Of a stretch of DNA of 64,000 bases, positions 1,872 through 64,000 are shown one piece after another. Where the stretch lies: the NCBI GenBank assembly GCA_043719295.1, contig JAYSUD010000006.1, positions 17,318-81,317 on the forward strand. Direction: 5' to 3'. Both the position numbers and the translations under genes were made by a program. The notes under the pieces are model-generated. The model saw only the letters and a list, made by a program, of their open reading frames with translations, did no database searches and was not told the DNA's origin. Position 1 is the stretch's first letter. Every line of letters begins with the position of its first letter. The DNA is from a bacterium. Its GTDB lineage: Bacteria; Patescibacteriota; Minisyncoccia; Phycocordibacterales; UBA918.

Positions 1872-4800
1872 CTATTTATACCAACTACTATTTGTTTGGG
1901 TATTGTGCGACTTATGTGCCTCAATCGCAATCCCTTGAAGTATTTTTGCATCAGTAAGCGTCACCCCAGCAGGCAAAAACTCACTTGGTGTTGGTGGATT
2001 TACTCCAAAAGCTGCAAGATACATCATATTTGCTGCAAGGTATGCAGCAGGTGGAGCTGCATGAACACTATCGTACGTAAGCATTGTTTCAGCAGTTTGC
2101 CCATCATCACCTTTTCCATAGAGTTCAGTGAACTTCTTATGAGCCTGAGTATATGCCATACCCGCAGCTGCATAACCTGTATTATTACGGATTGCTGTTT
2201 TTTCATATCCTGCATCTAAAGCAGCTGCAACAGTGTCTCCTTTGCTGATACTGATAAGCTGATCAGGTGCCCATACTCCGTATAACATGACATCTGTGCC
2301 ATTTGCTTTTGCTAAATTAGCGAAGAGATCAGTGTGAATTTCATAACTACCAGGTACCGTACTTTGCAGAATATCATCTCCACTTTGTAGTACTAAAAGA
2401 TCATAGTCACCAGAGGCAAGTCGTGTTTTTGGATTATATTGTTCAGGTTTACCTGCCCAATTCCACAACTCACTCATAACTGACCCTCCGATTACAGACA
2501 AATCATGAGTTGCACCAGATGCCTTCTGCTTTAGCATGCGCATAAACAAACCTGAAGCACTGTTTTCACGGATTCCTCCAGGAGCTGCGTAGGTATATGA
2601 ATTACCAACGAAAAGTACTTTTGGATTGGTTTTAAGACCAGTAATACTACCTCCGATTACGGCTCCTCCATCTGGAACTGGTACTGGTGTTCCGTTTGGT
2701 GTAGCATCACACGCATTTCCGATACCATCTTTATCAGTATCTGCTTGTGTTACGTTACTTACAATTACACAATTATCTGTTGCATCGGCAATAGAGTCCC
2801 CATCTGTATCTTTCGGTGCAGTTACCACAGGCGGGGTTGTCGTAGCGACAGTACGATAATCAGGGTCACATACGTTACCAATACCATCTTTGTCCTTATC
2901 CCATTGTCCTACATTCCGCACTGTTGGACAGTTGTCATTAGTATCAAGCACTCCATCAGCATCGGTATCGGCTGTTGGGCTTGGTACAACTGATGATGTT
3001 AATTTGCCCAAAAGCTCTAATTCCATTGCTTGAACCCTCGCTGACCCTGAGGTACCTTGTACAGTCACTTTCACATACCGTCCGGTAGTTTTAATTGAGC
3101 GCTCAAACCACGCCATGCCATATGCATTAGAAGCAGTAAATATTTTTCCATATGCAGCCCCAGCGGTTGATTTAGATTCAAAACTCCAAGTCTTCGAGTG
3201 CCAAGTACCGTTGGTGTCGCCAAAAATTCGAGTAGAGGTAAGATCATAATTTGCACCAAGGTCAAACTCTACCCAAAAGGTTTCACTTACTTCTGAACCC
3301 GCTGAACATCCAAGCGTCACAGCTGTACATCCGTCAAATAAATTATCAGTTATATGATCTTTTTCGAAGTTATTTGATGATGCAATTATTTTCGATGCAC
3401 TGAGCAAATTACTTGGATTTGCACTTGGGGGAAGCGTGACCGTACCATTTGGAGTTGCATCACAAACATTTCCAATCTTGTCACCATCGGTATCAAGTTG
3501 ATTGCTATTGCTTACAAGCACACAATTATCTATAGAATCTGCAACAGTATCTTTGTCTGTATCGGTGACTGTTCCTCCAGTTGTGCTTGTTTTACTTATA
3601 CGTGTAGTAACTACCCAACCATCTGTTCCATTTGCAAAATTAACCTGCACCCACGTGTAACCACTTGCTGTCTGTGAAACAGAACTGATCACGGTACCAG
3701 TACTTCCTAAAGGTTGAGAACCAAGGATGCTTGCAGTAAGTCCATATGAACTACGTACATTAACTTCACTGATAGCAGTAATAGTATCGCCGAGTTTGAT
3801 TAAAGCAGTTGGCACTTCGCCGCCTGTTGTTCCACCACCGGTTGTTGCACCAGGTGTTGGAGTAGCTCCATATAACGCAGTGTCTTTATAATTAGGATAC
3901 TTACCTTCAATCGAAATAGCTCGAGGAGGCCAGTTGCTTAAACCTGTATTTGAGAGAAGTGGTCGTTTTGGTGCACTTGCAGAATTGTAGCTAAACGGAC
4001 TTCCTGCGCCTTTTGCAAAAACTTTTCCAGCTTCATTGAGTTCAAGGTCAGTAACGTTGGCAACCATGCCCGCATTCCAATTTTTAAGGAGCTTACTAAA
4101 TGAGTCAGAATCACTCGCAGCTATACTCATCATGACATTGTTGTTCATGACAATATTTCTGGCTGTCATGAAGGCAGTTTTTGCTGCACCTTTAAGCGTT
4201 TGAGATTCGTCACTAATTGATACACCGTTCTCTTTTGTAAAGGCATTTGTGTACCCAATTATATTGTCATGAACTTCAATATTTTTAAGTGCTAGTTCTG
4301 GCTTATTAGCTGTACCATTATTTTCAATTTCATTAAGACCAATTGATGGAGCGGCAATAAGATTATTAGTACTTATGTTTTCATATCCTCCTGAATAAAT
4401 GAATGTGTTATGGTGCACTTTAGCATTTTGCATATCACCAATTGAAATACCTTTCGGATTGGTTGAATACACAACGTTGTTAAAGTACTGGAAATCTCTA
4501 ACAAAATCGCCTGCTTGACCAGCATTTCCACGACCAAACATATTTTGCATATGACTCGCACCCGCTTCAAGGAATACGTTATTACTCATTACAACTCGCT
4601 CAATACTTTCGTCAGTACCAGCAATATAGTATTGAATACCATCTACATGATCACCGTCAGTTGCTCCCGCCTTTAATTGACTTCGATGAACCCCCATAGG
4701 TGTATTAAATTGATTGTTATCAATCAACACGTCTTGACTACCCACAATCCTCATAAAATCTGAACGGACGTGGTGAATATGAGAGTTCTTAAGAGTTACG

Positions 4801-5528
4801 TGATCAGACTCTGAAGAAACTAGATTAATGATGTAATCAGCCATATCAACAGTGTCAAATGTTACATATGATGAATCAAATACATGTACTCCTCCACCAT
4901 AGGGATAGTTTGAAATTGGCACATCACGACTCGTTGTTTCTGAAGCCAGTACTCCTTCTGTTGATTTGAGTACATGTCCACGAAATACCGTACCGGAAAA
5001 AGTAATATTTTTACTATTTCGTATAGTCACCATCGGGCTACCATATCCACGTCCCACCTCATTGTCGGTGATTTTTACATTTTCAATACGAAGTCCTGTA
5101 CTACCCGTGACCTGAAAATTCTTTGTAAGAATTACAGCTGGATTGCTCGCAACCGCTGAACGAATGATTACTGGATTCGTCGCAGAGAAAACTCGGTTGG
5201 TAACAGAATATCTTTCTCCCAGAGCATCGAGGTCATATGTACCCGGAGAAAGTGCAATAATATCTCCTGACACTGCCTTTTTTAGAGCTGCATCAAATTC
5301 AGCTACAGTTGCTACAGTTTGTGTCCCAAGAACCTGGGGGACACCCTGAAGTTGCGCAATGAGTGCCTTTAGTTCTACAATCTGTTTTGCAATTTGTTCA
5401 AGGCCAGCAACCGAAATGTCACGTGCCACTGATGCCTCTGCATTTGAAATAGTATTTCCAAATAGCAGGACTGTAATTATTGAAAGTGTGAGTACTTTTG
5501 TATATAAAAATGAGATTGTTTTCAACAT
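1872..5528 (-). CDS. Giant secreted multidomain surface protein of 1219 aa. It carries a signal peptide, an SH3b-like domain, a right-handed beta-helix, a discoidin (F5/8 type C)-like domain, TSP3 Ca-binding repeats and a C-terminal SGNH/GDSL-like hydrolase domain.
   Basis: ORF 1872..5630. The likely start is MLKTISFLY at 5528, followed by a hydrophobic signal peptide. Recognisable motifs: LKALIAQLQGV; VNVRSSYGL...GYTWVQVNFANGTDGWVV (SH3b-like); repeated NN..H.N beta-helix turns; DTDGDKIGNVCD, DKDKDGIGNVCD and DTDKDGIGNACD (TSP3); and LFVGNSYT...DLLVLQSGDD (SGNH). Confidence 0.8.
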   Translation of the reverse strand: MLKTISFLYTKVLTLSIITVLLFGNTISNAEASVARDISVAGLEQIAKQIVELKALIAQLQGVPQVLGTQTVATVAEFDAALKKAVSGDIIALSPGTYDLDALGERYSVTNRVFSATNPVIIRSAVASNPAVILTKNFQVTGSTGLRIENVKITDNEVGRGYGSPMVTIRNSKNITFSGTVFRGHVLKSTEGVLASETTSRDVPISNYPYGGGVHVFDSSYVTFDTVDMADYIINLVSSESDHVTLKNSHIHHVRSDFMRIVGSQDVLIDNNQFNTPMGVHRSQLKAGATDGDHVDGIQYYIAGTDESIERVVMSNNVFLEAGASHMQNMFGRGNAGQAGDFVRDFQYFNNVVYSTNPKGISIGDMQNAKVHHNTFIYSGGYENISTNNLIAAPSIGLNEIENNGTANKPELALKNIEVHDNIIGYTNAFTKENGVSISDESQTLKGAAKTAFMTARNIVMNNNVMMSIAASDSDSFSKLLKNWNAGMVANVTDLELNEAGKVFAKGAGSPFSYNSASAPKRPLLSNTGLSNWPPRAISIEGKYPNYKDTALYGATPTPGATTGGGTTGGEVPTALIKLGDTITAISEVNVRSSYGLTASILGSQPLGSTGTVISSVSQTASGYTWVQVNFANGTDGWVVTTRISKTSTTGGTVTDTDKDTVADSIDNCVLVSNSNQLDTDGDKIGNVCDATPNGTVTLPPSANPSNLLSASKIIASSNNFEKDHITDNLFDGCTAVTLGCSAGSEVSETFWVEFDLGANYDLTSTRIFGDTNGTWHSKTWSFESKSTAGAAYGKIFTASNAYGMAWFERSIKTTGRYVKVTVQGTSGSARVQAMELELLGKLTSSVVPSPTADTDADGVLDTNDNCPTVRNVGQWDKDKDGIGNVCDPDYRTVATTTPPVVTAPKDTDGDSIADATDNCVIVSNVTQADTDKDGIGNACDATPNGTPVPVPDGGAVIGGSITGLKTNPKVLFVGNSYTYAAPGGIRENSASGLFMRMLKQKASGATHDLSVIGGSVMSELWNWAGKPEQYNPKTRLASGDYDLLVLQSGDDILQSTVPGSYEIHTDLFANLAKANGTDVMLYGVWAPDQLISISKGDTVAAALDAGYEKTAIRNNTGYAAAGMAYTQAHKKFTELYGKGDDGQTAETMLTYDSVHAAPPAAYLAANMMYLAAFGVNPPTPSEFLPAGVTLTDAKILQGIAIEAHKSHNTQTNSSWYK

Positions 5529-5561
5529 GGTGATATGTAATTGTATTGATAATTTTCTAAC

Positions 5562-5603
5562 TAAAAACGGGGATAACCAGCTTAGCCGGATACCCCCTCC
5601 TAT
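5562..5603 (-). promoter_or_regulatory. Second copy of the conserved leader hairpin plus U-tract. On the mRNA strand it reads AUAGGAGGGGGUAUCC-GGCU-aag-CUGG-UUAUCCCCGUUUUUAG. This is a candidate attenuator.
   Basis: The position and structure match 1697..1737. The inner stem differs by a compensatory pair: CAGGC/GCCUG versus CCGGC/GCUGG. Confidence 0.5.
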
Positions 5604-5702
5604 ACAGACATCATATACCTCAACTTGCATTTAAATTTCATCTCTTGTGGATAACAAATAGTTCGAATCTGTACCTATATAAGTTAAGTATGTACAAAAA
5701 GT

Positions 5703-16669: not shown

Positions 16670-18292
16670 TCACCTGAAGAAAATTGGGGTATCATTAAAA
16701 GTCGATTTCAATGTAACGGGAACAAGCGTTTGTTCTTCAACGACAGTCCAGTCATGACTTTTTGAAATTAGCGGACGGCCTGGTCTCGAGGCTTTTACAT
16801 ACAATCTCCACAGAATGAGTGCATACAGGAAATACACAATGACAACGACGTAAAATGGAAATGCCGGAACAACGTAGCTTGCAAACGGAAGTTTTGCAAA
16901 GACCTCTGCTATTAAAATGATGTATGCCAAAGACATGTATGCCATATATCCAACTAACGAAGAGAGTGTGGTGCTTATAAAGCCAACCATCCCAGTAATA
17001 AAGATAAGCACCATTGCAACGGGAACCATTGGTAATACTAAGAGATTAACAAATACAGCAACCACTGAAAGTTGCCCCATTTGATACAAAAGGATTGGGG
17101 TAATAAAAATCTGCGTTGCTAACGTTGCAGTGAGAAACTCTCGTAACTTAAACCATGTGGGCATAAACCTAACATAGAAGGCAAGATGTGGTGACACGAG
17201 AATGAGACCTAGGGTTGCAATAAACGAAAACTGAAATCCAACATCGTACACCAGAAGGTACGGATTCAAAATGAGCATGAAAAAACCGGTAAGCACTAAT
17301 GCTCGTAAAACAACATACGTTCTTTCAGTCGCCTGAGAAAGCAATAGTAACAATGCCATCGCACTTGCTCGCATAACTGTTGGAGAAAGTCCAACCAGTA
17401 TCGCAAACAACAAAATTGAAAGTGCCCCACATACCAAACGTAACCGCATAGGTAAAAATAAAGCAAGTAGATACATTACAAACAAAACTACTAACATGAT
17501 GTTGTACCCTGAGAGCACCACAATGTGAATAATGCCAGTTGTTCTAAATGATGCTTCAATATCTTTTCCGAGTGCTTGTTTTACTCCAAGAAGCAGTCCT
17601 TCTCCAAGTCCTGCGTACGGTTCTGGTAACACCGCCTCAATATTACGCATGAACAAATGTTTAAATTCAAGAATATTTTTTAAAATAACACTCGCCTGAT
17701 TTTGTTCTATCACCGTAACTTTTGCAAAAGAAACTACGTAGTGTACGCCGCGCGCATTAAGATACCCTTGGTAGTTAAAGGTTCTTCCAATATCAGTTTC
17801 AAATGAAGTGGGCTTTGCGAGCTTCCCTGTAAAAGAAACTTTGTCTCCGTATGAAACGTCAACGTATCTATCGGTTGTCACCAAAAGAAGTTCGTTATTT
17901 ACTTTCACATAGAGATGCTGGGAAGAGGCTCGAATATCGGGTTCACGAACAATGATTCCCTCTTCTGACAGAACTGTATCGAGCTGTGATTGATAGTGCG
18001 GATTTTCTTCAAAGTGTACTTCTCTATCCATTCGAAGAAGCCCTAAAGAGAAGGAGCAAAGGCACAGTGATAAAAGTAAGAGCAGTGAAGCGGCACGTGT
18101 ATTTTTTTTCTTTAAAGACACCAAACAAAGTGCGAGACCTATACAAAAAATCCACAGTATCCAAGGTAGACCGATACTAAAAAATGAGCGTATGAAAATC
18201 CCTAGAGTAAAACCAACAATGACCCCGTAGATAGGCACTGTCTGCATCAATACAAGTGTAACAGAAATAATTAGGACTTTTGGAAATGGCAC
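16670..18292 (-). CDS. comEC: ComEC/Rec2 DNA-uptake channel protein, carrying the DUF4131-like and competence domains but no MBL domain.
   Basis: ...LLLGVKQALGKDIEASFRTTGIIHIVVLSGYNIMLV... is the competence-domain signature. The protein has many transmembrane helices. The track start is GTG 18292. Confidence 0.75.
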   Translation of the reverse strand: MPFPKVLIISVTLVLMQTVPIYGVIVGFTLGIFIRSFFSIGLPWILWIFCIGLALCLVSLKKKNTRAASLLLLLSLCLCSFSLGLLRMDREVHFEENPHYQSQLDTVLSEEGIIVREPDIRASSQHLYVKVNNELLLVTTDRYVDVSYGDKVSFTGKLAKPTSFETDIGRTFNYQGYLNARGVHYVVSFAKVTVIEQNQASVILKNILEFKHLFMRNIEAVLPEPYAGLGEGLLLGVKQALGKDIEASFRTTGIIHIVVLSGYNIMLVVLFVMYLLALFLPMRLRLVCGALSILLFAILVGLSPTVMRASAMALLLLLSQATERTYVVLRALVLTGFFMLILNPYLLVYDVGFQFSFIATLGLILVSPHLAFYVRFMPTWFKLREFLTATLATQIFITPILLYQMGQLSVVAVFVNLLVLPMVPVAMVLIFITGMVGFISTTLSSLVGYMAYMSLAYIILIAEVFAKLPFASYVVPAFPFYVVVIVYFLYALILWRLYVKASRPGRPLISKSHDWTVVEEQTLVPVTLKSTFNDTPIFFR

Positions 18293-62062: not shown

Positions 62063-62458
62063 TTACCCAGCAACGATATTTTCAATATAATTGACTGTTG
62101 CGTACTTTTCCTCTACCACCATACGCACTGCAACAACATCAATCTGCCAAGCGCCTTCATACGAACGATCACTAATCCAGGTTTCAATTGACTTCCCTAT
62201 CTGATGTAATTTAAATTGATGCACCTGTTCTTCAGGTCTCCACGTTCCACATGAAACTGCATACCGAAGTTTCTCTTTAGTTTCATATGAAACACTTTTT
62301 ACTTCTACAAAATGCACCATACCATCTTTTGATGCGACAATATCAAGTTCACCCCACTTGCGCCAATAGTTTATATCTAAAACAGTAAATCCCCTCTTTT
62401 TAAGATAATTTGCAGCAATTTTTTCACCGTAATCACCTATGACTTTTGTGTTTTTCAT
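62063..62458 (-). CDS. yraN: YraN-family (UPF0102) endonuclease.
   Basis: GDYGEKIAANYLKKRGFTVLDINYWRKWGELDIVASKDGMVHFVEVKS. Confidence 0.8.
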   Translation of the reverse strand: MKNTKVIGDYGEKIAANYLKKRGFTVLDINYWRKWGELDIVASKDGMVHFVEVKSVSYETKEKLRYAVSCGTWRPEEQVHQFKLHQIGKSIETWISDRSYEGAWQIDVVAVRMVVEEKYATVNYIENIVAG

Positions 62459-63448
62459 TTTATTGAATTAGATTTGCAGTATTTGTTCCATGTGGAACTG
62501 TAATAATGTTTCACGTGAAACGTTATCATTCTGTTATGTGCAAAGTTTTTCATGAAAATTGAGATTATAGTTATATTTTCAAGCATATTATATAAGACTA
62601 ACAAAATTGCAATTTTGTCCCTTATACACATATCCACTCGCTTATCCACTGTTTTTGACCTTTATGAACATCTGCTGGATGTATGAATTAAGCATGTATC
62701 TTTCAAAAACACTACATTGCAACCTATTAATGGTAGTTCCACATGAAACAACGAGCAAGATGGGGGAGTGTACAATGCAAAAAATGCCCCATAATGGGGC
62801 ATTTTTTAGTATTCAAACACGTCTTGATCACCCAGCCGGAACAGACCTTCATCTATTCGTTTCTGATCAAGAAAATGTCCTATAAATCCGACTGAACGGG
62901 GGATTATGAACAGAGCATTGAAGAACTCTATACCTAGGAGCTCTTGAATATGTTCCACGTCGAACATTTCTTTCTGCTCTAGATAGTCCAAAAACAATGC
63001 TGCTACAGTACCATCTACGTTTAATATAAGGTTATCCCGTTTTTTTGATGTTTCACGTGCAACTTCTTCGGCAAAGAGGAGGTATTTTGGATTTGCAATT
63101 GCAGATTTACCAAGTGCTATAAGTTCGGAAACTCGCGGGTCAGGTTTGTATACGGTGTATTTTTTGTGACCTATTCCTGCAATATATTCACGTTTCTTAC
63201 TGTAGAGCGCCACTAGCTCTTGCGGTGTTGTTCCATGTGAAACACTTTCAAACCACACTTTCCCCGCATTATTCATAGCTCCACCAAATCGATCACCGAT
63301 AGTGAGAATACCTGTTGCAAGAGCTGAACCCATATCACGTCCTGCCCTTGTAGTAATAATTGTATTTACTGCACCTGATACATGCGGTCCATGGTCAATC
63401 AATTCCGAGAATATTGTATCTGCAAACGCGACTGTTTCATGTGAAACG
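62243..63448. promoter_or_regulatory. Cluster of eight parS-like 16-bp palindromes with consensus tGTTyCAyrTGrAACa. They are candidate ParB binding sites and lie in yraN, the intergenic region and the citrate-lyase-like gene.
   Basis: Sites at 62243, 62279, 62484, 62507 (TGTTTCACGTGAAACg), 62735, 63049, 63229 (TGTTCCATGTGAAACA) and 63433. None is present elsewhere in the window. Confidence 0.7.
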
Positions 63449-64000
63449 CTATTCCGCTGTAGCACACGCATTAAAATACCTTCAGTAAAGCTTGAGGCTT
63501 TTTTCTCACGTGTGTACTTTGGTGCACTGAAATGCGTTGATTTTATTGTGGTACTTCGCAAGGTAAAGTCTCGTGCACCTATAACCTGTGCTTTTTCTTT
63601 TGAAAGGGAAGTAAACGCTGTCATGAAGTCTGCAAATGTTTCACAAACACTAACCCCAACAACTCGCAACGCCACCATCTTAGCTTGGGCAGTTTCATCT
63701 TCTGTTTTTGCAAGCGCTTTTGCATGTCCAAATTGAATTTTTTCATCTTTTGATTTAAATCGTCCAGCAATATATGCAACTATTGGCTTCGTTATTTTTT
63801 TGTCCTTTATAGCCTCTATGAGGTCGTATTCATCACGACCACCCAATTCTCCGAAGTAGACAATCTCTTTCGTCTGTGGGTCGTTTTGGGCCATTGTAAT
63901 CCATTGTAAGGGCGACGTGATAGGAAAGCGGTCGCCACCAAATGCAACTGCAAAACTAATTCCTGATCCAGCTGCCACAATCTGGTACATAAGCTCGTTA
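62806..64000 (-). CDS. ATP-citrate lyase / citryl-CoA-type protein, a succinyl-CoA-synthetase-alpha-like CoA-ligase domain fused to a citrate-synthase-like domain. It is 5'-partial.
   Basis: ...VAYIAGRFKS... is SCS-alpha-like. C-terminal ...FIIPRSVGFIGHFLDQKRIDEGLFR... is citrate-synthase-like. The ORF is open to the right window edge. Confidence 0.65.
   Translation of the reverse strand, partial: NELMYQIVAAGSGISFAVAFGGDRFPITSPLQWITMAQNDPQTKEIVYFGELGGRDEYDLIEAIKDKKITKPIVAYIAGRFKSKDEKIQFGHAKALAKTEDETAQAKMVALRVVGVSVCETFADFMTAFTSLSKEKAQVIGARDFTLRSTTIKSTHFSAPKYTREKKASSFTEGILMRVLQRNSVSHETVAFADTIFSELIDHGPHVSGAVNTIITTRAGRDMGSALATGILTIGDRFGGAMNNAGKVWFESVSHGTTPQELVALYSKKREYIAGIGHKKYTVYKPDPRVSELIALGKSAIANPKYLLFAEEVARETSKKRDNLILNVDGTVAALFLDYLEQKEMFDVEHIQELLGIEFFNALFIIPRSVGFIGHFLDQKRIDEGLFRLGDQDVFEY

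Follow-up and report, generated by a model that had tools for sequence, protein, structure and literature searches.

Genes and parS-like Sites at the Locus

We have analysed a 64,000-nucleotide stretch of DNA (hereafter the window) from a bacterium of the phylum Patescibacteriota (GTDB lineage Bacteria; Patescibacteriota; Minisyncoccia; Phycocordibacterales; UBA918), which corresponds to positions 17,318 to 81,317 of the forward strand of contig JAYSUD010000006.1 (assembly GCA_043719295.1). Near its right edge the window carries a dense array of parS-like palindromes, candidate binding sites for the chromosome partition protein ParB, and this array is the subject of the present work. It lies across two genes on the minus strand and the 347-bp intergenic region between them. 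The first gene is yraN (62063-62458, minus strand), which encodes a UPF0102 protein of 131 amino acids (aa) predicted to be a PD-(D/E)XK nuclease. The second encodes the beta subunit of an ATP-citrate-lyase-like (ACL-like) enzyme with Ligase_CoA and Citrate_synt domains, of which the window holds the 3' two-thirds (62806-64000, minus strand); the complete protein consists of 583 aa and its start, at about position 64557, falls outside the window. Directly past the ACL-beta stop codon is a terminator-like hairpin with a U-run (62776-62806, minus strand; -18.4 kcal/mol, z = -4.1).

A search of the window for 16-mers with up to 3 mismatches to TGTTNCACGTGAAACA has identified nine parS-like sites within positions 62243-63448, which start at 62243, 62279, 62484, 62507, 62735, 62951, 63049, 63229, and 63433. 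The original prediction, made from the letters of the window, had placed eight such palindromes in a stretch of 1.2 kb that covers parts of yraN, the intergenic region and the citrate-lyase-like gene; the clustering and the placement stand (yraN contains two sites, the intergenic region three and the ACL-like beta gene four), and the count has been corrected to nine. Three of the sites differ from the consensus at a single position (those at 62507, 63049, and 63229), three at 2 positions and three at 3 positions. Their spacings are 36, 205, 23, 228, 216, 98, 180, and 204 bp, which amounts to one site per 134 bp.

This clustering is far beyond what is expected by chance. The degenerate pattern GTTYCAYRTGRAAC has seven exact matches in the array (62244, 62280, 62485, 62508, 62736, 63230, and 63434) against 0.00 expected from 100 shuffles, and, with both strands counted, 20 parS matches are observed per 64 kb against 3.5 in the shuffled sequences. 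A Poisson estimate for the occurrence of at least nine sites in 1.2 kb is about 1e-19. In the remaining 62.8 kb of the window, where the motif had been predicted to be absent, the search returns two 3-mismatch matches alone (7064 and 35903), which is the chance level, and no site with 2 or fewer mismatches.

The individual sites are described below, where L001 to L029 denote the 29 related loci with which the window has been compared. Both sites in yraN carry 3 mismatches: site 1 (62243-62258; CGTTCCACATGAAACT) encodes V-S-C-G-T on the coding (minus) strand and site 2 (62279-62294; AGTTTCATATGAAACA) encodes V-S-Y-E-T. Among the intergenic sites, site 3 (62484-62499; TGTTCCATGTGGAACT, 3 mismatches) has the yraN start codon 26 bp downstream, site 4 (62507-62522; TGTTTCACGTGAAACG, 1 mismatch) is the best of the window and is aligned as GTTTCACGTGAAAC in 7 of 8 sequences, being degenerate in L007, and site 5 (62735-62750; AGTTCCACATGAAACA, 2 mismatches) is located beside the ACL-beta terminator. 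The four sites within the ACL-beta gene are site 6 (62951-62966; TGTTCCACGTCGAACA, 2 mismatches), which encodes M-F-D-V-E-H in the second stop-free frame and is also found in L002 and L027; site 7 (63049-63064, minus strand; AGTTGCACGTGAAACA, 1 mismatch), which encodes E-V-A-R-E-T and is shared with L002, L003, L010, L022, L027, and L028; site 8 (63229-63244; TGTTCCATGTGAAACA, 1 mismatch), which encodes V-S-H-G-T, is orthologous in all nine aligned genomes and has invariant third bases in its GTT and TCA codons; and site 9 (63433-63448; TGTTTCATGTGAAACG, 2 mismatches), which encodes V-S-H-E-T and is orthologous in 8 of the nine. Avoidance of restriction sites was considered as a cause of the degenerate centres of many sites and rejected, as ACGT and CACGTG occur at their expected frequencies.

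Conservation of the Array in Related Genomes

In one-genome-per-species and metagenome collections the ACL-like protein has relatives of 64-77% identity, which bear the label Candidatus Saccharibacteria, and closer relatives (80-89%) are known from short contigs only. The bacterium of the window was classed as a member of Candidatus Saccharibacteria (TM7/CPR). One 4.6-kb Logan contig (L001) encodes a yraN protein identical to that of the window and adds 650 bp rightward. The array is present in all 17 syntenic loci that reach the 3' half of the ACL-like gene (L002-L015, L022, L027, and L028), and the ACL-beta proteins of these array-bearing relatives are 64-89% identical to that of the window. 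The gene order around the array is conserved and consists of a gene for a helix-turn-helix (HTH) protein, the ACL-alpha and ACL-beta genes, yraN, CNNM, and CorA. The number of sites per relative ranges from 2 to 16 (up to 3 mismatches), the lowest numbers being those of truncated contigs, and the arrays span up to 3.4 kb. Perfect parS sites are found in L003, L004, L011, L012, L022, and L028.

The restriction of the motif to this region was examined in 15 loci anchored at the ACL-beta stop codon, where the locus was defined as -3000 to +1700 and sites were accepted with 2 or fewer mismatches. By this measure 112 parS sites are present in 62.5 kb of locus and none in 183 kb of flanking DNA. A further 38 kb of neighbouring DNA from one species (L025 and L029) also contains no parS site. 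In all of the DNA scanned, which comprises the window and the flanks of its relatives and hence partial genomes, the sites are confined to one region. A motif scattered around the genome, the outcome that the original prediction had named as counting against it, is not what these partial genomes contain, since neither the 62.8 kb of the window nor the 183 kb of flanks holds a single match at this threshold.

Two of the in-gene positions are common to 8 and 9 of the nine aligned genomes and the others are lineage-specific. Many relatives carry 2-3 extra sites in the 5' part of the ACL-alpha gene; because these include the two nearest relatives (ACL-beta 85% and 80% identical), the array of the window is probably cut by the edge and would continue at approximately 65.4-65.7 kb on the window scale. 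The sites also continue through genes that are inserted at the locus, namely a def gene in L009 and, in both L008 and L009, a gene for a 224-aa membrane protein between ACL and yraN. The array is tied to the locus and not to any one gene. Beside ACL-like homologues that are 50-61% identical and occur in other contexts, viz. the polysaccharide-gene contexts of other Patescibacteria, no site was found even at 3 mismatches (up to 21.7 kb examined for each).

Two further observations concern the arrays of the relatives. In five of the seven aligned relatives (L002, L003, L004, L010, and L011; alignment A2, columns 55-110) two inverted parS-like sites, some of them degenerate, flank a GC-rich hairpin at the ACL-beta terminator and extend its stem, while the window has one site and a separate hairpin. 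One array-bearing contig (L006, JBLHGD010000027.1) is labelled in its record as 'Candidatus Azotimanducaceae' (Gammaproteobacteria), yet it carries a Saccharibacteria-type ACL-yraN locus with a parS array and is probably mis-binned or mislabelled.

Selection on the DNA Within Protein-Coding Sequence

When the ACL-beta genes of nine genomes are aligned by codon, 112 four-fold-degenerate codons specify the same amino acid throughout. At most of these codons the commonest third base is found in just 3-6 of the nine genomes, and at only 6 of the 112 is the third base kept in at least 8 genomes. Four of these 6 codons belong to the two shared sites, in which they are GTT and TCA, and the freezing of these synonymous positions indicates that selection acts on the DNA.

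The amino acids at the sites also vary with the presence of the palindrome. Lineages with a site read V-[S/A/L/T]-[R/H]-[E/G/V]-T in ACL-beta, and a comparison of sequences with and without a site shows E-V-A-R-E-T against S-V-A-A-L-T, the latter being the reading of those relatives that lack site 7, and S-V-L-R-E-T against S-A-I-A-N-P. Whichever strand is read, one of the three frames of the parS palindrome contains a TGA, and all 11 of the positions mapped within the ACL-beta gene are read in one of the two frames free of stops, 9 of them in the frame that gives V-S-R-E-T. Residues that depend on the site, together with the exclusive use of stop-free frames, show that the sites are maintained as DNA elements to which the proteins accommodate; the sites are thus kept by selection on the DNA rather than on the protein.

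Identity of the Motif and Its Proposed Role as a Centromere

The consensus of the 112 sites from 15 loci is tGTT[C/T]CAC[G/A]TGAAACa, in which G2, T3, G11, and A12-C15 are conserved at 94-100%. The palindrome is the near-universal consensus of chromosomal parS, and positions 2 and 7, with their symmetric partners, are said to discriminate parS from the sites of Noc, a paralogue of ParB. At the specificity positions the 112 sites have G2 in 100%, A7 in 95%, T10 in 89%, and C15 in 98%. Since G2 and A7 are near-invariant, the sites are of the chromosomal ParB/Spo0J type and are not Noc sites. The Noc sites of Firmicutes (NBS, ATTTCCCGGGAAAT) are related palindromes of 14-16 bp; they differ from the present sites in having A2 and C7 and in being distributed widely over the chromosome except near the terminus, whereas the sites described here occupy a single locus.

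The number of the sites, their exclusivity and conservation, the G2/A7 signature and the frozen synonymous positions all fit the original prediction of parS sites forming a ParB nucleation centre, and on this sequence evidence we consider it likely that the array is a ParB-bound chromosomal centromere (parS array) of a clade of Saccharibacteria. We strongly infer that ParB is the binder; that it binds and spreads at this locus, and that ParA acts on the resulting complex, are steps that we infer. In the proposed mechanism each 16-bp palindrome would load one dimer of the chromosomal ParB, a Spo0J-type CTP-dependent clamp. ParB loaded at the nine sites of the window, or probably about 11 with those in the ACL-alpha gene, would spread by sliding and bridging across a few kb on either side to form one dense partition complex, and the ParA ATPase would separate such complexes after replication. 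Most of the loading sites would sit in coding sequence, the proteins having adapted to them. The loading of SMC is a usual second role of ParB-parS.

Information regarding the partition proteins comes from the cultivated Saccharibacterium Southlakia epibionticum, which encodes ParA (SEML1_0183) and ParB (SEML1_0184; PF02195 and PF17762), both members of widely distributed core families that are called growth-defective or essential by transposon sequencing (PMC10633639), this being the one species of the group with such data. In its genome of about 864 kb a distance of 180 kb separates parAB from dnaA, and its annotation tables list FtsK, likewise growth-defective or essential, and name no SMC, ScpA, ScpB, or MukB (PMC10633639). 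Because SMC and ScpAB are not named in these tables, SMC loading is doubtful and segregation driven by ParA is likelier. A literature search found no description of a parS site or centromere from Saccharibacteria or Patescibacteria.

Several points weigh against the identification of the array as a centromere. The central ACGT of the palindrome is kept in only 3 of the nine sites of the window (the rest have ACAT, ATGT, or ATAT), and three sites carry 3 mismatches, the divergent sites being putative ParB sites. No genes for ParA, ParB, or DnaA were found in the window, in the flanks of the relatives or anywhere in the approximately 452 kb of DNA that was searched, and the expected link of the array to a replication origin was not found in the skew or in the gene content reached. 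Lastly, the presence of ParB in the genome of the window is presumed by analogy with S. epibionticum, which is distantly related.

Search for parAB, dnaA and the Replication Origin

The search for partition and initiation genes combined Pfam with tblastn. Pfam analysis of about 38 open reading frames of the window and of the flanks of the relatives revealed no ParA, ParB, or DnaA. The tblastn queries were approximate sequences of Soj, Spo0J, and DnaA of Bacillus subtilis, so that their result is a lead, and against the window and the 29 loci they returned nothing but a DnaA fragment with E = 0.08 in a distant locus. The 10-kb right-side flanks of six relatives contain ACL-alpha, tRNA-Gly, the HTH protein, a few variable small genes, tRNA-Arg, the CCA-adding enzyme, a conserved non-coding block, and exonuclease III. 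In one species the right side can be followed to about 37 kb, and it continues with a XerC/D-like recombinase, rpsO, pnp, a comM-like gene, a LysM peptidase, uvrD, ksgA, and genes resembling those of type IV secretion systems. The original prediction had suggested that parAB might be found just past the right edge; the Pfam and tblastn searches located none there, either in the flanks of the six relatives or in the longer flank of the one species. From about -37 kb (relatives) to +62 kb (window) of the array neither parAB nor dnaA was found, nor any clear switch of the GC skew, and the array is not adjacent to parAB or dnaA.

The GC skew of the window is negative throughout and mainly tracks gene orientation. 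Minima of the cumulative skew occur near cca, the gene for the CCA-adding enzyme, in several relatives, and they were considered as a possible origin. After one contig had been lengthened by 18.5 kb (L011 and L025 merged, 40 kb), the per-gene skew was regressed on orientation. The residual replication term is small and has the same sign on both sides (+0.02 and +0.03), and in L011 no reversal is seen out to about 27 kb from the array. As the replication term keeps its sign, the minima near cca reflect gene orientation and were rejected as an origin. More generally, the skew in the window and in the merged contig follows the coding strand (about ±0.05-0.1) and the replication term is about 0.02-0.04, and with so small a term skew minima at orientation switches can be mistaken for origins.

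The Intergenic DnaA-Box-Like Block

The intergenic region of the window contains three DnaA-box-like 9-mers in direct orientation (62622-62670, plus strand), namely TTATACACA at 62622, TTATCCACT at 62642, and TTATGAACA at 62662, each with at most 1 mismatch, and a weaker 9-mer, ATATCCACT, at 62630 (plus strand; 2 mismatches by inspection). The block adjoins a 99-bp stretch of 76% A+T (62523-62621). It is followed by TAAAGGAC, and by position it falls mid-array, close upstream of yraN. Besides parS, no intergenic element is better conserved than its core when the window is aligned with seven relatives, and the window and 10 relatives (L002, L003, L004, and L006-L012) have a matching pair of boxes at this position with a spacing of 20 bp. 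The rest of the window shows no enrichment of DnaA boxes, and no Rfam family matches the intergenic region. The sequence TATAAAGGAC was considered as a general promoter element and rejected, as it shows no enrichment in the window. Judging from its position and sequence, the block may serve in the control of the yraN promoter by DnaA; that it is part of a replication origin is less likely.

Other Explanations of the Array

The alternative that survives best would add to the centromere rather than replace it, and holds that the region between ACL and yraN is a replication origin unlinked to dnaA and bracketed by parS sites. The conservation of the DnaA-box-like block and its A+T-rich neighbour at mid-array in the window and 10 relatives, and the lack of such enrichment in the rest of the window, are what an origin of this kind would display. 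Three boxes upstream of a gene, however, fit equally well a role of DnaA in the transcriptional control of yraN. No switch of skew or gene orientation is seen across the array (window, L002, L008, L009, and L011), neither dnaA nor dnaN is nearby, and inspection revealed no DnaA-trio-like repeats. We consider an origin at this position unlikely, and we give as little credence to a combined origin and centromere that lies away from parAB and dnaA, is written mostly into metabolic coding sequence, and belongs to a lineage with a relative for which no SMC or ScpAB is named.

It is less probable still that the palindromes are operators of another DNA-binding protein, for example the 220-aa HTH protein encoded upstream of ACL-alpha, which would control the ACL operon and yraN. 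Such a protein is conserved beside the locus in the relatives with annotated flanks, and three of the sites do occur in the region of the yraN upstream sequence and the ACL terminator. Most sites, however, are deep in coding sequence, 100-230 bp apart over 1.2-3.4 kb, an arrangement unlike that of operators. The sequence agrees with parS at every specificity position, and the array persists despite the altered gene content between ACL and yraN. The HTH protein itself resembles only weakly sigma-70 region 4 and Tfx-like proteins and has nothing ParB-like.

The original prediction had also entertained the partition locus of an integrated element; such an element could be a plasmid, a prophage, or a mobile element of another kind, and would carry its own parAB close to the sites. 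Plasmid centromeres (F sopC with 12 tandem 43-bp repeats, P1 parS, the OB sites of RK2) typically consist of densely arrayed partition sites and resemble the present array in having many ParB sites within about 1 kb; the array moreover reaches the window edge, with its right-hand neighbours beyond. Plasmid arrays differ in that they are regular, non-coding, plasmid-specific tandem repeats located beside their own parAB, whereas the sites described here are irregularly spaced (23-228 bp), have been inserted independently within genes and conform to the chromosomal consensus. Every syntenic relative that reaches the array has it inside a housekeeping gene order, conserved across ACL-beta proteins of 64-89% identity, and the GC content is ordinary (0.394 against about 0.40). 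No ParA or ParB, integrase, or other element genes are found within 10 kb rightward in the relatives, and the XerC/D-like recombinase beside rpsO, 8-9 kb off, is itself syntenic. An integrated element is thus very improbable.

Hardly credible, finally, is a by-product of a recurring V-S-R-E-T peptide motif, in spite of the similar pentapeptides encoded at several in-gene sites, or mere chance, for the sites are also intergenic, also use a second frame and occur in four unrelated proteins, third-codon positions are frozen, distant homologues of the enzyme lack both the sites and their context, and the chance probability is as low as that given above. A DNA-uptake sequence was likewise considered and is ruled out by the distribution of the sites, which is limited to a single locus and not genome-wide.

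Comparison With Known Partition Systems

The closest known counterpart of the array is the cluster of 22-24 parS sites in about 3 kb of Myxococcus xanthus (Iniesta 2014, PMC3899335; Harms et al. 2013, PMC3778016). The ParB of M. xanthus binds the sites of this cluster in vitro, and the cluster precedes parA by about 4 kb (PMC3899335). The two arrays share the same 16-bp consensus and are equally dense, with one site per about 139 bp in M. xanthus and one per 134 bp in the window, and both have one compact array as the centromere, at least as proposed here; ParAB is essential in M. xanthus and growth-defective or essential in S. epibionticum. The density of the sites, which the original prediction had called unusually high, is indeed high, but it equals that of the M. 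xanthus cluster (22 parS in 3 kb). The two systems differ in that the M. xanthus array is near parA and the origin, while here no parAB or dnaA was found within the distances given above, and in that most sites of the window are in coding sequence, within unrelated housekeeping genes. Judging from the one Saccharibacteria genome with a known size in this comparison (about 0.86 Mb), the genome is also about 9 times smaller than that of M. xanthus.

B. subtilis, Caulobacter crescentus, and Pseudomonas aeruginosa have the same palindrome, with presumably the same loading of ParB. Sites within coding sequence are also well known, for example within spo0J. In these genomes 4-10 origin-proximal sites are distributed over 10 kb to hundreds of kb and usually flank parAB and oriC. 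The arrays described here are unlike these in having 9-16 sites within 1.2-3.4 kb, at a locus that is unlinked to parAB.

Other Features of the Region

The conserved non-coding block on the right side lies in a gap of 0.8-1.1 kb between the convergent genes for exonuclease III and the CCA-adding enzyme, 7-8 kb from the array (L002 2692-3463; L004 2177-3049; L005 4580-5528; L008 1973-3133; L009 4759-5626). It is strongly conserved over about 450 nt (alignment A1). Two DnaA-box-like 9-mers stand in tandem within it, together with the palindrome GTGTCCTTTATAAAGGACAC, and it also has a stretch resembling a promoter, several hairpin structures, and a terminator. The gap was considered as oriC on account of the DnaA-box-like pairs and rejected, since the remainder resembles an RNA gene. 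From its sequence features the block looks like an undescribed RNA gene, and Rfam and ARAGORN gave no credible match to it.

The remainder of the window is ordinary chromosome, with pgk, tpi, type IV pilus genes, nusA, tig, clpP, rny, comEC, recJ, corA, dapD, and two tRNAs. Several of its genes, viz. pilBC, comEC, a two-component pair, corA, and CNNM, are also grouped in S. epibionticum. A protein of 1252 aa encoded at 1872-5630 (minus strand) contains domains of four kinds (beta-helix, SH3, F5/8 type C, and thrombospondin type 3 repeat) and is probably a large surface or adhesion protein of an epibiont.

A two-subunit ACL-like enzyme, with Citrate_bind in the alpha subunit and Ligase_CoA and Citrate_synt in the beta subunit, is found in Saccharibacteria and other Patescibacteria. 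In distant relatives its genes occur among NeuB, CMP-sugar, and polysaccharide genes, a context that hints at a role other than the reverse tricarboxylic acid cycle. S. epibionticum has just a shorter succinyl-CoA-synthetase-like pair, 7-9 kb from dnaA.

Significance of the Array

The array is an element of a known type, at a density that has precedent, found in a little-studied phylum. The accepted view of ParABS function is unchanged by it and the mechanism is the expected one. The locus provides a clean natural case of a DNA-binding code written over a protein code, the cost of which is the recurrent V-S-R-E-T and the frozen synonymous sites. Saccharibacteria are ultrasmall epibionts that have only lately become genetically tractable, and for this group the array represents a concrete and conserved candidate centromere. 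It could serve as a target for chromatin immunoprecipitation sequencing of ParB, or for fluorescent ParB with which segregation might be followed, and as a partition cassette for the construction of stable replicons in these organisms.

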